This document shows, piece after piece, positions 9,982-15,526 of a stretch of DNA of 64,000 nt. Every line of letters starts with the position of its first letter. Positions within the stretch are counted from its first letter, which is position 1. The position numbers and the translations under genes were made by a program. The stretch comes from Chloroflexota bacterium. Its GTDB lineage: Bacteria > Chloroflexota > Chloroflexia > QHBQ01. The stretch is from positions 284 to 64,283 of the forward strand of contig JANXYP010000278.1 in NCBI GenBank assembly GCA_025355955.1, written 5' to 3'. The notes below the pieces were generated by a model that was given only the letters and a program-made list of their open reading frames with translations, had not been told where the DNA came from and ran no database searches.

Positions 9982-12726
9982 ATGAACACAATCAGCCCAC
10001 AGCGTAATAGGATGATTGCCGCCCTCGCCCTTAGCCTGCTGGCGTTGCTGCTGGCGCTGCCTGCCGCCGCGCCGCTGACTGGTTATAACCTTGATGTGGG
10101 CGGCCCCCTCGATGCGCCGTTCATCTCCGGGATGGGGTTGCCAGGGGCCGTTGACAGGGTGAGCTACCGTTGGAGCGACGGCGCGGCTGGCGTGCGCCTG
10201 CCCGCGCTGGACACATCTGCGCCAATCCTGGTTAGCATCCGCACCGGCGCGAACTGGTGGCCGACCGCCACGCCACTGACTATGACCCTGCGAGCCAACG
10301 GCCACGCCGTCGCCGCCCTGCCACTGCACCCTGGCTGGGACTGGTACACCGCGACCATCAGCCCCGCACTGTTGCGCTCCGGCCTGAACCTTACCATCGA
10401 GAGCGCCACCTTCACCGATGTCAACGGCCTAAATCGGCTGGGCCTGCCGCTCGATGCGGTTGCGGTGCAGTCGCTCGACTCCGCCCCCGCACCCGACCTA
10501 TGGCTGCCTTTGGCCCTCGCCCTGGCCGTGCTGCTGGCAACGCTGCTGGGTTGGCGGCATAACTGGCGGTCGGGATTGGCGGTGGGGCTGTTGGCGATCG
10601 CCACGCTCACCCCGGCGTTGTATCTCTACCGCCCGCTGTTCGCCCTCTACATCAGCACGGTGCTAGTCGCGCTGGCAGCAAGTCTGGCGCTGGCTCACTT
10701 CCGCCCCTGGCTGCGCCGCCCTGCCCCCAGCGATGCGCGGGTAGGGCTGTATCTGTTCGTCGCCGCCCTGGCCGTTTACCTGTTGCTCACTCCCGGCCAG
10801 TTCACTTCTGATGATGACAAAGTAAAGTACCTTGCAACTGAGAGCCTGCTTGTGCGTCACAGCTTTGCCCTACCCACGCCAATCTACGGCGCTACCTACA
10901 GCAAATATGGCCTCGGCCCCAGCCTGGCAGATGCGCCACTGCTTGCCCCCGTGCTAATCCTGGAGCAGGCGCTCGGCACACCGTTGCCTGTGCTGCGCCA
11001 GTTCAGCGTGATCCTGTTGAACCCATTGCTGGGGGCGTTGCTGGTGTTGCTGCTCTACCGTACCGCGATGCTGCTCTACCGTCGCCGCGCCGTGGCAATC
11101 GTCCTCGCCCTGATCGGCGGTGGCGCTACTACCATCTTCGCCTATGCGCTGCTGACCAGCGCCGAACTGCTGCTTGCCACCCTGCTGCTGGCGCTGGCCT
11201 ATTGTCTGCTGCGCTACTTCGACGCTGGCGATAGTGATAGTGATACAGCAAAAAGCATCACCTTGCAGCAAACTAAGCCCCCAGCGGGGGTTTGGGGGAG
11301 AGAAGCCGCCCCACTACTAACAAAGCCCCCAGCGGGGGTTTGGGGGAGAAATGCTGACCAGCTACCAGGTTCGTCGTTGTCCGCCTCTGCATTGGGTAAT
11401 AGCGTAGACGATCGCCGTGTATGGCTGATACGTTCGGGGCTGCTGCTGGCAGCGTTGACCCTGGTCAAGCAGGAATACGCGCTAGTAGGGCTGCTGGTGC
11501 TGGGCTGGTGGCTGCTGCGGGTGCGTCACGCAAAGGCGACCAGCGGCGCGGCACTGCGCGGTGGCATATTGCTGGCCGCGCCGCTGCTGCTGGCAATTGC
11601 CGCCAACGTCGGCTATAACCTGCTCTGCAGCGGCGACCCGCTTAATCCCGGCTACACCGCCACCGCCTTTGCTGCGCCGACCATTAGCGCGGAACTGACC
11701 GGCATTTACGGGATGCTTGCCAGCCCCGGCAAGAGCCTGTTCCTCTACTCGCCACCGCTGCTACTACTGCCGTGGGTGGTGGGTCGTTTCTATCGTCGCC
11801 ACGCCTGGGATGCCGCGCTATGGACGGCGATCAGCATACTGCTGCTGCTCTTCTATGCGCGACTATCGTTCTGGAGCGGCGATCTCGCCTGGGGGCCGCG
11901 CTATATCATGCCACTCACCCCATTGCTGCTGCTGCCGCTCGGCACACTGCTGCTCGACTTCAGCACCTGGCGGCGCGGCTATAAACTCTGCGTTGGCGGG
12001 CTACTGCTGCTCGGCGGGGCGGTGCAGCTACTCAGCGCTCTGGTCAGCTTCCAGGCCGCTTTCTTCGCCGACTTGCCACCCGCTGGCGACATTCCCAGCC
12101 ATTACACCGCCTGGCAGTTCATCCCCTGGCAATCGCCGCTGGTAAGGATGGCGGCGATGCTGCTGGGCGGCCAAATCAACGCCCAAGCCATCAACCACCT
12201 GAGCAGCTACGGCTTGCCCCTGCTTGCCGATTACCTTGCGCCCGCCGCGCTGCTTTCCATAGCGGCATTGTCGATTGCTACCATCATTGACGCGCTTCAC
12301 GCGGGCGTATACGATTCGCCCCTACCCTATCTACTCACACCTCGTCCCTCATCCCTTATCCCTCGCGCCTCATACCGCGCCCCTCATCGCTCATCCCTAC
12401 CCTTGCGCCACCTCGATTTGATCCTCGTCGAAGACGGGGTCGTGGCCCAGCGTGGCGCTGACCTCGCGCTTGAAGCTATCCGCATCGACGTTGAAGCCGC
12501 GCGGCTCAATCTTGACCTCGTAGCTGCCGCTGCGGATAAAGAGCAGCAACAAGTCGGGGCCACCGTTGTGCCTGGCGATCTCGGCGATCTGGTGCATCCT
12601 ATCGGTGTCAGCATCGGCATCGTCGCTGACCGGCAGGCGCAGGTGCAGACGGCGCACCCAGGTGGTCGCTGGAGGTGGCGGGGCGGACACAGACTTGCCG
12701 CCCTGCTTCGCACCCTCCTTGCCTGA
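9982..12726 (+). CDS. Polytopic membrane glycosyltransferase (GT-C/ArnT-PMT-like); the C-terminus after about 12300 is probably read-through
   Basis: SDDDKVKY, YSKYGLGPS, PGKSLFLYSP and WGPRY motifs; many TM helices; the last 330 nt overlap the convergent gene. Confidence 0.75.
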   Translation: MNTISPQRNRMIAALALSLLALLLALPAAAPLTGYNLDVGGPLDAPFISGMGLPGAVDRVSYRWSDGAAGVRLPALDTSAPILVSIRTGANWWPTATPLTMTLRANGHAVAALPLHPGWDWYTATISPALLRSGLNLTIESATFTDVNGLNRLGLPLDAVAVQSLDSAPAPDLWLPLALALAVLLATLLGWRHNWRSGLAVGLLAIATLTPALYLYRPLFALYISTVLVALAASLALAHFRPWLRRPAPSDARVGLYLFVAALAVYLLLTPGQFTSDDDKVKYLATESLLVRHSFALPTPIYGATYSKYGLGPSLADAPLLAPVLILEQALGTPLPVLRQFSVILLNPLLGALLVLLLYRTAMLLYRRRAVAIVLALIGGGATTIFAYALLTSAELLLATLLLALAYCLLRYFDAGDSDSDTAKSITLQQTKPPAGVWGREAAPLLTKPPAGVWGRNADQLPGSSLSASALGNSVDDRRVWLIRSGLLLAALTLVKQEYALVGLLVLGWWLLRVRHAKATSGAALRGGILLAAPLLLAIAANVGYNLLCSGDPLNPGYTATAFAAPTISAELTGIYGMLASPGKSLFLYSPPLLLLPWVVGRFYRRHAWDAALWTAISILLLLFYARLSFWSGDLAWGPRYIMPLTPLLLLPLGTLLLDFSTWRRGYKLCVGGLLLLGGAVQLLSALVSFQAAFFADLPPAGDIPSHYTAWQFIPWQSPLVRMAAMLLGGQINAQAINHLSSYGLPLLADYLAPAALLSIAALSIATIIDALHAGVYDSPLPYLLTPRPSSLIPRASYRAPHRSSLPLRHLDLILVEDGVVAQRGADLALEAIRIDVEAARLNLDLVAAAADKEQQQVGATVVPGDLGDLVHPIGVSIGIVADRQAQVQTAHPGGRWRWRGGHRLAALLRTLLA
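11275..11349 (+). repeat. Two in-frame copies of a MITE terminal repeat inside the glycosyltransferase CDS
   Basis: aagcccccagcgggggtttgggggaga x2, 48 bp apart, encoding TKPPAGVWGR twice. Confidence 0.85.
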
Positions 12727-15198
12727 AGGGCGGGCGCTGCTGCCATTGTTGGGGTTGGTGCGGTTCACGGTATTGGTAGTCGTCCTCTCTGCTGGTACTG
12801 GATCAGGCTTTGCCTGGCTGGGCGCTAGTTCGTCGATTACGTCGAAGATATCGCCCCGCATACTGCTTCCCCTCTCCTTCGGGGAGAGGCTGGGTGCGGG
12901 TAGGGGCAGCGGGCCGATCGCGCCGCCTTCGTAGCTGCTCACCTGCTCGACTAGCAGCGCGGCCTGGCCGTCGTTGACCAGCAAGGTGCCGTAGGCCAGC
13001 AGCAGCCGCCCCTCGACGGCAGCCAGTTGCGTATGAGCGGGAGGGTAGGCAAAGACGTGCAGTTCGCCTGCCAGGTCGCGCAGCCGCGCCGCCACTAGCG
13101 GGTTGCCATCGCTGCTGACCAGCCGCCGCATCCCGTACATTATCCCCAGCGCCCGGCCGTGACTGCCCGATGTGGGCAACGCCGCGCTGCTGAATAGCCG
13201 CCCGTCGGCGGTTGCCGCCCGCCAGTGTTCGGCATGGGCAGCTAGTGGATGCAGGCCCAGTGGTGCAGTTGCGTCCGCGAAATACTGCTGTGGTTGGTGC
13301 GCCTTGATGTAGGCGAGGCGATAGTTGTCCCAGGCCAGGCAACGGGTGGTGGCATCATCATCACTCACCCCCATCTGCGCCGCCAACGCCGTCACCAGTT
13401 CGCTGATACTGCCCACCGGCGGCAGCGGCCCGCCGCCCTCGATGTCGTCGGCCTCGCCCGCTTGCAGCAAGGCCAGAGTCGCGGCATCATCCAGTGGGAT
13501 GTCCAGCTCTGCCCCCCCCGCCTTTTCCAGCAGATCGAGGGCCGCGCTAGGCGACAGATCAATCCGTACTCCGCCCAGCTTGCTGACTGCTGTGCGACTT
13601 AGGCGCAGTGTGGGTAGTGGCGACCCTCCCTGCAGCGGAAGAGATTCGCCGATCGGCTGGGCGGTTAGCAGCAGACTGCGGCTGCCGCTCTCGCCCGCAC
13701 GCGGTCGCCCCGCCATACTTTGGGCCAGGGTCAACAGGGCAAGCTGCGTCTCGCTCAGGCTGCTTGTATCCGCAATTGCCTTATCGCTAGTCAAGCGAAG
13801 CAGCTGGGCCAGGTCGTCTGCGCTTGCTCCGTTAGCCTGCGCGGCTTCGCGCAAAGCGCTACGCAGGCTGGTGCGTGGCGGTGGCATCAGCAGGCAGGCA
13901 CACCCCGCATAATGTGCTGCTATATACTCTAGCAATTGTTGCTCCCGTGCCACCGTGTATTCCAGGCAGAGGCTGCGTCCCACCCCACCCGACACTGGCA
14001 GCAACTGCGGCGGCAATGCGCCTACGCCAAACGCCAGTGCCAGACTGTCGCCGCCCTGCCCCGCGCCGACGCGCACGGTAAAGCCCTCGGTGCGGGCGTA
14101 AGCGGTCAACTCCTCGGCCAGCACATAGGCAAAGGTCAGCCCCGCCGCCTCGACCATCGTCAACTCCTGCGTCGCCGCCGCGCCAAGTGCAGGCGGCAAC
14201 TGGGCCAGCCGCGCTTGTAGCCGAGCGATTGGCCCTCTCCCAGCCTCCCCCGGTGGGGGAGGGGTTTTGCCCGGTGGCGCAAGCGGCGCATCAGGCAGGG
14301 TCAGACTAATCGTCGCGGCCAGGTTGATCGCGGCTTCCAACGCACCTGGCAGGGCGGCGAAGCGGGCGCGGGCTTCATCTGCGGGCAGCAGCGGACGCGG
14401 CGCAACGGGCATTGGCAGGTTGTGCAAGGTGCATAGCGCGGCGTAGGCAGCCGCCTCGTCCGCGTCAATGTAGTCGGCACAATGCAGCGCCAGCAGCGGC
14501 AGGCCAATTTCCGCCGCCTGCTTATCCAGGCGGACCGCCTGCTGGGCTTCACCCGCATCCACGCCGAGATATAGCTGCCCGTCACAAGCCTGCTTTGCCA
14601 CCATCAGGGCGCGGTTGAGTGCAAGCATCTCCTTCTTGCTACCCGTCAGCATCATCGCCGCCCAACCCAGACTGATCACGGTCAACCCTGCGCCGCACAG
14701 GTTGAGGCTGTCGAGATCCAGAGCGTGACCTTTGTCCGCAAGTTGGCGCAGGTTGGCCCAGCCGTGCTCGTCCCTTGCCAGCAGCAGCAGCGGGGTTGCG
14801 GCAATCGGCTCACGCTTGCCCTTCACCTCCATCGTCTCACCCACCCGCAGCGGCAGCGCCAGCCCCAGCAGCAGCTTCGTCTCACCGTCAGCGGTGTAGG
14901 CGGCTAGATACAACTCCACCGCGCCCGCCAATGTGCCAATGCTGGCAATCACCAAAGGCTGCCAGCCCCGCTCCCAGGCCGCCGCCACAAAATCAGCCAC
15001 CCGCCGCAAACCGCTGGCATCACCCTCGGCGGCCCGCACCAGCAGCAGCGGCAAGCCGTCACCCGCCGGGGCGTGATTCATCGCGCCCTGGCTTGCAACA
15101 TTCTCGCGCTTACCGTCCCGCGACTTGTGCTGATGGGGCGCTTCTTCATCTGCGGTTGGCTCCTCGCCAAACAGCGGCAGCGGCTTGACCTTGCCCAA
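12397..15198 (-). CDS. Degenerate DNA polymerase III alpha (DnaE) paralog, predicted catalytically inactive
   Basis: Collinear with DnaE PHP, palm, IPLDD, AYIKAHQP, OB-fold and C-terminal domain; PDIDIDF is replaced by RSLCLEY. Confidence 0.8.
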   Translation of the reverse strand: MGKVKPLPLFGEEPTADEEAPHQHKSRDGKRENVASQGAMNHAPAGDGLPLLLVRAAEGDASGLRRVADFVAAAWERGWQPLVIASIGTLAGAVELYLAAYTADGETKLLLGLALPLRVGETMEVKGKREPIAATPLLLLARDEHGWANLRQLADKGHALDLDSLNLCGAGLTVISLGWAAMMLTGSKKEMLALNRALMVAKQACDGQLYLGVDAGEAQQAVRLDKQAAEIGLPLLALHCADYIDADEAAAYAALCTLHNLPMPVAPRPLLPADEARARFAALPGALEAAINLAATISLTLPDAPLAPPGKTPPPPGEAGRGPIARLQARLAQLPPALGAAATQELTMVEAAGLTFAYVLAEELTAYARTEGFTVRVGAGQGGDSLALAFGVGALPPQLLPVSGGVGRSLCLEYTVAREQQLLEYIAAHYAGCACLLMPPPRTSLRSALREAAQANGASADDLAQLLRLTSDKAIADTSSLSETQLALLTLAQSMAGRPRAGESGSRSLLLTAQPIGESLPLQGGSPLPTLRLSRTAVSKLGGVRIDLSPSAALDLLEKAGGAELDIPLDDAATLALLQAGEADDIEGGGPLPPVGSISELVTALAAQMGVSDDDATTRCLAWDNYRLAYIKAHQPQQYFADATAPLGLHPLAAHAEHWRAATADGRLFSSAALPTSGSHGRALGIMYGMRRLVSSDGNPLVAARLRDLAGELHVFAYPPAHTQLAAVEGRLLLAYGTLLVNDGQAALLVEQVSSYEGGAIGPLPLPAPSLSPKERGSSMRGDIFDVIDELAPSQAKPDPVPAERTTTNTVNRTNPNNGSSARPSGKEGAKQGGKSVSAPPPPATTWVRRLHLRLPVSDDADADTDRMHQIAEIARHNGGPDLLLLFIRSGSYEVKIEPRGFNVDADSFKREVSATLGHDPVFDEDQIEVAQG

Positions 15199-15322
15199 TC
15201 CCTAATCCTCCTCATTTACGAAAACTGGCCGCGTCATTATATCATCTTGCCCGCCGAAAAGCCACGAATAAGGGTACATAATCACTCAAACCTCAATCCT
15301 CAAACCTCAGCACTCGGCTGCG

Positions 15323-15352
15323 CTTGAACCCCACTTGACAATGTGCTATAAT
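15323..15352 (+). promoter_or_regulatory. Sigma-70-type promoter for the Get3/ArsA-like gene
   Basis: TTGAAC-N17-TATAAT. Confidence 0.5.
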
Positions 15353-15526
15353 TCAGCCCACAGACCCGCAGGACGTTGCGCTCACTCTTGCAACCTTGCA
15401 ACCCACGCTGCGTTTTTGTAAGTAGGCGATGCCGTATTCCGTAGGGCGGGTTGCGCTCGCCCCGCTCATTTGTGCATAGGGGCTAGTGGCACTCGCCCGC
15501 GTCGGGTTACACAGAAAGCAATTTTC

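Follow-up and report, generated by a model that had tools for sequence, protein, structure and literature searches.

A catalytically dead relative of DNA polymerase III alpha under selection in Chloroflexia, and its possible role as a docking scaffold

The window analysed here is a stretch of 64,000 nucleotides from a Chloroflexota bacterium (assembly GCA_025355955.1, contig JANXYP010000278.1, positions 284 to 64,283). It comes from a soil Chloroflexia metagenome-assembled genome (MAG) which is 84% complete, in an assembly of 5.15 Mb. On its minus strand, at 12397-15198, lies an intact open reading frame (ORF) of 933 amino acids with no internal stop, which encodes a catalytically dead derivative of DnaE, the alpha subunit of DNA polymerase III (Pol III alpha). 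An original prediction, made from the letters of the sequence, had proposed a dead DnaE paralog repurposed as an adaptor. The idea of a selected, catalytically dead Pol III alpha derivative is upheld, and the results fit a non-catalytic adaptor for the clamp, tau or single-stranded DNA; the paralog label and a proposed SOS box are not retained. Relatives were examined in the window's own family (f1, five genomes), in its order as a whole (the three families f1, f2 and f3, 40 species genomes) and in the Chlorohelix family (f5), where database names place Candidatus Chlorohelix. Residues were placed with an alignment of 54 sequences, A4, which includes 39 active C-family enzymes, and with an AlphaFold model, whose confidence is given as the predicted local distance difference test (pLDDT). 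The gene and the parts of its product are as follows.

12397..15198, minus strand: gene for the dead DnaE1-derived protein (P0001), one open frame of 933 codons
15169..15183, minus strand: PLPLF (residues 6-10), which may dock on the beta clamp; the tail around it (residues 1-45) is disordered (pLDDT <50)
14299..15063, minus strand: PHP-like domain (residues ~46-300), from Pfam PHP (E 0.0036), hhalign, alignment and pLDDT of ~85-95
13264..14241, minus strand: palm/thumb and last finger helix (residues ~320-645), holding the dead active site; hhalign to residue 583, pLDDT ~75-94
14044..14067, minus strand: GAGQGGDS (residues 378-385), replacing the nucleotide-binding GRGSAAGS, from A4 and hhalign
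13957..13974, minus strand: SLCLEY (residues 409-414), replacing PDIDID, with L410 and L412 for the first and second Asp; conserved within f1
13555..13569, minus strand: VRIDL (residues 544-548), with the third catalytic Asp kept (D547), from alignments
13186..13206, minus strand: DGRLFSS (residues 665-671), probably derived from the internal GQxxLF beta-clamp motif; the linker that holds it, ahead of the OB fold, is disordered (pLDDT <50)
12904..13176, minus strand: OB fold (residues ~675-765), from phmmer to 7pu7, collinear hhalign (E 0.001) and Foldseek to RPA/SSB OB folds; pLDDT ~80
12682..12900, minus strand: disordered, poorly conserved linker (residues 767-839), pLDDT <50 and low column conservation
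12406..12666, minus strand: C-terminal beta-alpha-beta domain (residues 845-931), homologous to the tau-binding C-terminal domain (CTD) of DnaE1 and common to all dead relatives including Chlorohelix; pLDDT ~80-90

Single-model searches detect this protein only faintly. Pfam gives only the weak PHP match, the NCBIfam DnaE model (NF004226) scores 35.6 bits against a cut-off of 1002 (E 2.4e-9, over the N-terminal third), and the error-prone DnaE2 model (NF004225) scores 22 bits. A profile of the family reaches genuine DnaEs at E ~1e-75, and hhalign aligns the window protein to DnaE1 with a probability of 99.1% (E 7.6e-19, residues 66-583 against 19-603, 502 aligned columns). Every collinear DnaE block named in the original prediction was reproduced by hhalign, and A4 agrees. 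YRLAYIKAHQP, for example, aligns with YQTAYLKAHYP of DnaE1, and in the OB region hhalign places LGLHPL against LGLYxSGHPL. With phmmer, the OB fold matches residues 1016-1098 of Mycobacterium tuberculosis DnaE1 (7pu7). The AlphaFold model, built from a 54-sequence alignment (pLDDT 75.8; a model from a 5-sequence alignment, pLDDT 42, was not used), consists of four folded blocks (PHP-like, palm/thumb, OB and C-terminal domain) joined by disordered segments. Foldseek matches it to alpha from Thermus aquaticus, M. tuberculosis and Escherichia coli at E 1e-32 to 1e-24 (2hpi, 7pu7 and 4iqj at ~1e-32), and the best 14 matches are all Pol III alpha. The DnaE homology is secure, and the protein can be placed by sequence and predicted fold in the Pol III alpha superfamily, with a homologous C-family core of PHP, palm and thumb.

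The active site of this core has been dismantled. The motif PD[IF]D[ITV]D is present in 39/39 active enzymes of A4, and the window protein has S409-L-C-L-E-Y414 in register, a placement also given by MAFFT on two other sequence sets and by hhalign. The loss of the catalytic PDxD aspartates had been correctly foreseen, but the substitutes are L410 and L412, not the S and C first named, which lie one position off. No acidic residue stands at these first two catalytic positions in four independent alignments. The third, D547, is retained, which the original prediction had not noted. GRGSAAGS has become GAGQG--GDS in the alignment, the RPGP and YGFNKSH motifs are absent from the window protein, and the metal-binding HxH of the PHP domain is lost, LVRAAEG standing where DnaE1 has HLHTHSE. 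The suspected deletion of the fingers and HhH region is also seen, with ~350 amino acids (fingers and HhH/beta-binding domain) missing relative both to DnaE1 and to longer dead relatives, and the frame open throughout. Because two of the three metal-binding aspartates, GRGS, the finger motifs, the PHP ligands and ~350 residues of fingers and HhH are gone, the alignments establish that the protein should no longer be able to polymerise. It could still be a polymerase or other nucleotidyl transferase only through non-canonical residues, such as D547 with E413. D547 is kept, E413 sits in the former catalytic strand and the protein is the sole C-family homolog in the assembly. However, E413 falls between the two former aspartates and should face the opposite side of the strand, the GRGS, RPGP and YGFNKSH motifs and the finger residues that bind dNTP and template are missing, and the f2, f3 and f5 relatives lack even D547, having T, R/L/V or E at its position. 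Residual activity is therefore very improbable.

Codon comparisons indicate that the gene is under purifying selection. The ratio of non-synonymous to synonymous substitution rates (dN/dS) is 0.20 in each of two genome pairs, G000/G002 (dS 0.60) and G003/G004, evenly along the gene; among its neighbours, an ArsA-like ATPase gene gives 0.025 and a sigma-70 gene 0.167. The original prediction had reasoned that a decaying pseudogene would have no homologs of conserved architecture and a dN/dS near 1, and neither is the case here. A pseudogene, or an annotation artefact of high-GC DNA, would suit a sequence so divergent that Pfam shows just a weak PHP match. Against this, orthologs at 80% down to 43% identity all have intact frames, the dN/dS of 0.20 is found in two independent pairs, promoter, ribosome-binding site and short motifs are conserved, and folded domains are predicted with confidence, leaving this explanation barely credible. 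Of 1.84 billion cluster representatives, just three clusters belong to the short type of dead protein.

The start site and promoter region contain the following elements.

15198-15196, minus strand: TTG start codon, read directly, 8 nt after the Shine-Dalgarno sequence
15207..15213, minus strand: Shine-Dalgarno sequence GAGGAGG, read directly, kept in the ortholog genome G002
15236..15244, minus strand: extended -10 element TGATATAAT, read directly, identical upstream of the G002 ortholog and ~40 nt before the TTG
15266..15277, no strand assigned: SOS-like GAAT-AAGG-GTAC of the original prediction, judged not to be a LexA site

The NCBI annotation of an 80%-identical ortholog (P0002, 936 amino acids) uses the same start as the window ORF. 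From their sequences, the promoter and ribosome-binding site appear strong, and the intergenic region is 87% identical overall to that of G002, the closest relative. This region (15199-15469) is common to the divergent ArsA-like ATPase gene, its 87% identity is well above the synonymous-site level, and it holds a tandem TTGCAAGGTTGCAAG at 15387-15401. The weak SOS-like site was rejected as a LexA box: two of its core positions depart from GAAC-N4-GTTC, and the spacer differs in length between this site (4 nt) and G002 (5 nt). No conserved box of the GAAC-N4-GTTC type was found in the promoters of the dead gene and its G002 ortholog.

Selection seems to keep those parts that hold Pol III alpha in the replisome, namely putative clamp-type motifs, an OB fold and a DnaE1-type CTD. 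The N-terminal KPLPLF had been proposed as a clamp-binding motif, and PLPLF is indeed invariant in 5/5 f1 proteins, with variable residues flanking it in the tail. The second motif, DGRLFSS, aligns at the GQxxLF site of DnaE1 and of dead relatives (QQTSLF, GQAGLF, GQLSLF), and its GRLF is kept in genus g1. The C-terminal domain appears to be that of DnaE1, because it is common to longer dead relatives whose matches to NF004226 run to model position 1134-1144 of 1146, and it may by homology bind tau. The assignments of the OB fold (E 0.001) and CTD (E 0.004) in f1 draw on these longer relatives and the model for support. Tau binding by the DnaE1 CTD is established for E. coli and Thermus. A tau-length DnaX and DnaN are encoded in all f1 genomes. 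In the window's own genome, dnaN matches fall in two frames (contig C237:9243-10378, model positions 1-67 and 59-367), suggesting a frameshift or assembly error.

The protein belongs to a wider dead family, present in 38/40 genomes of the order and in 10/10 sampled f5 genomes. Its f2 and f3 members are longer (1,220-1,310 amino acids) and have PGVE[VL]P or PRLTVA in place of PDIDID, with the third Asp in none. They keep a fingers-length body, a canonical clamp motif (QQTSLF, GQAGLF, RQVDLF), the OB fold and the CTD; a clamp motif at the canonical position is kept in f5 as well. Judged by these alignments, the dead family has the architecture of DnaE1 (clamp motif, OB fold, DnaE1-type CTD) and the window protein is its most reduced member. 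A closed genome is available for Ca. Chlorohelix allophototropha L227-S17, from an enrichment culture (PMC10972752). Its dead protein, WP_341470882.1, is annotated as a 'PHP domain-containing protein' and is encoded on the 2,453,413-bp chromosome 2.

A bona fide DnaE1, defined as a full-length protein scoring 1150-1380 bits on NF004226 over model positions 4-1143, occurs in 113/113 other Chloroflexia genomes (cut by contig ends in three), versus 0/38 in f1, f2, f3 and f5. None was found in the 40 genomes of the window's whole order. Many of the other Chloroflexia also hold a second, CTD-less enzyme (760-860 bits), and it is this second type which is the only active C-family enzyme in the f1/f2/f3/f5 group (800-890 bits, the match ending at ~1036-1068). 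It falls below both NCBIfam cut-offs (DnaE and error-prone), and the CTD-less active enzymes have no internal clamp motif. In a tree, the active DnaEs of the order join the CTD-less enzymes and the DnaE2 clade and not the Chloroflexota/Dormibacterota DnaE1 clade. The order's active enzyme was thus rejected as a normal replicative DnaE1: it lacks CTD and clamp motif, misses both cut-offs, lies near DnaE2 and matches the accessory-type enzyme of other Chloroflexia. The closed Ca. Chlorohelix allophototropha genome encodes only the dead WP_341470882.1 and the active WP_341471196.1, which has 961 amino acids and no OB fold, CTD or clamp motif. Active enzymes lacking the CTD and clamp motif (and, in Chlorohelix, the OB fold) stand beside a dead protein which has them; the two thus appear to carry complementary halves of the normal job of one DnaE1. 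By its domain content, the dead protein seems to occupy the architectural slot of DnaE1 across the window's order and the Chlorohelix family. The original prediction had called it a paralog accompanying a separate active dnaE, but neither the window's assembly nor any of the four other f1 genomes has a detectable active C-family polymerase.

Two further observations concern the active CTD-less dnaE. The f2 genome G005 has two copies (C18:24227-27736 and C57:35862-39356), one of them directly upstream of groES-groEL. In several genomes of the Chlorohelix family (G062:C3:12353-15697, G067:C18, G072:C24, G091:C77) the gene appears as two halves, with a break at model position ~535 and in-frame stops in the second half; a split gene, recoding or decay to a pseudogene could each account for this.

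Dead polymerases with a docking role are known from damage tolerance, where ImuB, itself a dead polymerase, brings DnaE2 to the clamp (PMC10421592, PMC11791113). The dead protein could similarly be a mutasome-like accessory, giving clamp binding to a CTD-less DnaE2-like polymerase outside the normal replisome. The active enzymes of these families do group near DnaE2, without clamp motif and CTD, and the dN/dS of the dead gene is moderately relaxed. Such an accessory needs a separate bona fide DnaE1, however, and none is found in the 38 genomes, including the closed one. No DnaE2-like partner was detected in f1, the promoter has no LexA box, and the dead protein is near-universal where the DnaE2-like enzyme is patchy. 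As the original prediction had stated, no imuA or imuB lies beside the gene, which is flanked on one side by genes for an ArsA-like ATPase, AF_1253 and sigma-70 and on the other by one for a membrane protein. Neither imuA/imuB nor a conserved partner was found beside the dead gene in the window and its relatives, or beside the relatives' active DnaEs, whose contexts differ and are housekeeping-like (one being groES-groEL). We consider a damage-tolerance role improbable.

The likeness to ImuB is that of a polymerase homolog without catalysis, retained as a clamp-binding adaptor (putatively so for the window protein, from its motifs), and related families (f2, f5 and one f3 genome) pair the dead protein with a DnaE2-like enzyme lacking a clamp motif. 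Unlike ImuB, the window protein is of the C family and not the Y family, has no imuA, SOS box or operon with an active enzyme, and has no detectable DnaE2-like enzyme in f1; the dead protein appears to replace the replicative enzyme rather than accompany it. DnaE2/ImuC, in turn, has an intact active site, no CTD and usually an imuA-imuB context, whereas the window protein is dead, has the CTD and lies apart from imuA/imuB. DnaE1 (E. coli 2hnh/5fkv, T. aquaticus 2hpi/4iqj, M. tuberculosis 7pu7) shares with it the domain order PHP, palm, thumb, OB, CTD, the collinear blocks, the best fold matches, a tau-type CTD and, just before the OB fold, what may be a clamp-type motif. The window protein differs from DnaE1 in having Leu for the first and second Asp, in the loss of GRGS, RPGP, YGFNKSH, the PHP ligands and the fingers/HhH region, in a new N-terminal PLPLF tail and in its score of ~36 bits against the cut-off of 1002.

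We favour, with moderate confidence, a reading in which the window protein serves as a non-catalytic scaffold: it would bind the beta clamp and DnaX/tau, perhaps the single-stranded template too, and recruit a separate polymerase. This catalytic partner would thereby be kept in place at the fork or at primer ends. In the relatives, the partner could be the active DnaE that lacks a CTD and clamp motif. In f1, it would have to be another polymerase, because no CTD-less DnaE is detectable there, and the leading candidate is PolA2, described below.

Several findings weigh against this scaffold reading. For the proposed clamp and tau contacts, the evidence consists of motifs and of homology to E. 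coli and Thermus alpha. PLPLF lacks the usual leading Gln of clamp motifs, and the internal GRLF is lost in genus g2 (GRLA). The hhalign match of the f1 CTD to the DnaE1 CTD spans the whole domain but is statistically weak (E 0.004), and the fold match is not independent of sequence homology, as the AlphaFold input alignment held DnaE sequences. The tree gives the dead family long branches and groups it with neither the DnaE1 nor the DnaE2-like clade, so that the case for its descent from DnaE1 rests on architecture and not on topology. The dN/dS of 0.20 is relaxed compared with the 0.025 of a tightly constrained neighbour. Finally, the gene context of the dead dnaE differs between genera and points to no partner.

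Much depends on whether an active C-family polymerase is truly missing from f1. The CTD-less active gene was found in 0/5 f1 genomes, 1-2/9 in f3, ~15-16/26 in f2 and 7/10 in f5. In the window's assembly, tblastn with nine lineage-matched enzymes and a custom hidden Markov model run unfiltered over 52,040 six-frame ORFs returned only the dead gene and a stand-alone PHP protein. At the detection rate in f2 short-read assemblies (~14/23), 0/5 has a probability of ~0.01. On the other side, the four highly contiguous assemblies (Ca. Chlorohelix L227-S17, G009, G006 and G030) all carry the active CTD-less DnaE. Faults of assembly or binning could explain why short-read MAGs lack it, because the gene is split at contig ends or is a fragment on a tiny contig in several of them (G023, G032, G035, G036, G020:C700). 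The chances of a true absence from f1 are roughly even.

Besides Pol I, every f1, f2, f3 and f5 genome has a second A-family polymerase, PolA2, which in the window's own genome is as follows.

Own genome contig C56:6705-9134, minus strand: PolA2, 810 amino acids, with Zn-ribbon, Asn/Gly-rich segment, 3'-5' exonuclease and Pol A domain

The ExoI-III and polymerase motifs of PolA2 are intact, a 5' nuclease domain is lacking, and the Zn-ribbon is found in f1 and f3. Orthologs of PolA2 (49-66% identity) occur wherever bona fide DnaE1 is missing (38/38 genomes of f1, f2, f3 and f5) and in none of the other Chloroflexia (0/113), so that the two distributions are exact opposites. In many genomes PolA2 has frames of 1,150-1,630 amino acids in which the match comes in two or three pieces, which looks like one or two inteins (G009:C6:469304-473452, G019:C66, G007:C139, G015:C122, G013:C811, G012:C614, G094:C10). 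In both f3 genomes checked, the gene lies 3-4 kb from dnaN (G006:C3:264253-270450, G008:C37:8764-14019). No clamp motif was found in PolA2; regular-expression matches to clamp motifs, in PolA2 as in the active DnaEs, were dismissed as lying inside folded conserved segments. If no C-family enzyme is present, PolA2 would be the leading candidate for the catalytic partner.

The boldest sub-case of the scaffold model is that the dead DnaE1 is the docking subunit of a replicase with non-C-family catalysis, in which PolA2 synthesises and f1 truly has no active C-family polymerase. The distribution of PolA2, its motifs, the inteins apparent in many f2 genomes and its proximity to dnaN in f3 are in favour, as is the detection of an active C-family polymerase in no f1 genome, in at most 2/9 f3 genomes and in none of the six-frame ORFs of the window's assembly; the low probability of 0/5 by chance and the accessory nature of DnaE2-type enzymes elsewhere (PMC3919608) point the same way. 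However, the contiguous assemblies all have the active CTD-less DnaE, its absence from MAGs may be artefactual, and PolA2 has no clamp motif. The four families may also form one clade, in which case the co-distribution of PolA2 and DnaE1 could be a single historical coincidence. Chromosome replication that dispenses with a C-family catalytic subunit is not known from any bacterium (PMC3919608, PMC12926913). We hold this sub-case to be possible but rather unlikely. The same doubtful standing applies to its evolutionary form, in which the lineage comprising the window's order and the Chlorohelix family would have given up C-family catalysis for chromosome replication, with the dead DnaE1 docking, PolA2 synthesising and the DnaE2-like enzyme optional, and lost in the window's family.

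Two comprehensive surveys credit every bacterium with one or more catalytically competent Pol III alpha enzymes (DnaE1, DnaE3 or PolC type), and the dead polymerases they report are of the Y and X families only (PMC3919608, PMC12926913). No published description of a dead C-family polymerase was found in the literature. Here, a dead C-family protein appears to be under selection in at least four families, in the DnaE1 slot even in the closed Ca. Chlorohelix genome. At the least, the scaffold reading would make it a bacterial counterpart to ImuB and to the inactive half of Pol epsilon. In the latter (the C-terminal half of Pol2), an inactivated replicative fold is an essential structure of the replisome and catalysis can be supplied elsewhere (PMC6265327, PMC9022971); that dead module differs in being of the B family, fused to an active module and engaged in assembling the CMG helicase, and the two are evolutionarily unrelated. 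The scaffold reading would also show that alpha's docking functions (clamp, tau, single-stranded DNA) are separable from catalysis onto another polypeptide. At most, the findings point to a bacterial replisome with a DnaE2-like or A-family catalytic subunit; if PolA2 does synthesise, a bacterial replicase lacking a C-family catalytic subunit would be a first.

B-family polymerases were also considered and rejected as the general missing polymerase, being present in only some genomes of the order. The window's own genome has two B-family polymerase-like genes of ~800 amino acids (C282:245-2647 and C52:2-1633), ~90% identical by eye, which may be paralogs or may stem from different strains within the MAG.

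The membrane protein next to the dead dnaE gene is encoded by an ORF of 914 amino acids (9982-12726, plus strand) that runs towards that gene and shares 330 bp with its 3' end. The last ~110 residues of this ORF read like the antisense of the dnaE CTD, and its real stop may be obscured. G002 has other genes at the position of this ORF.

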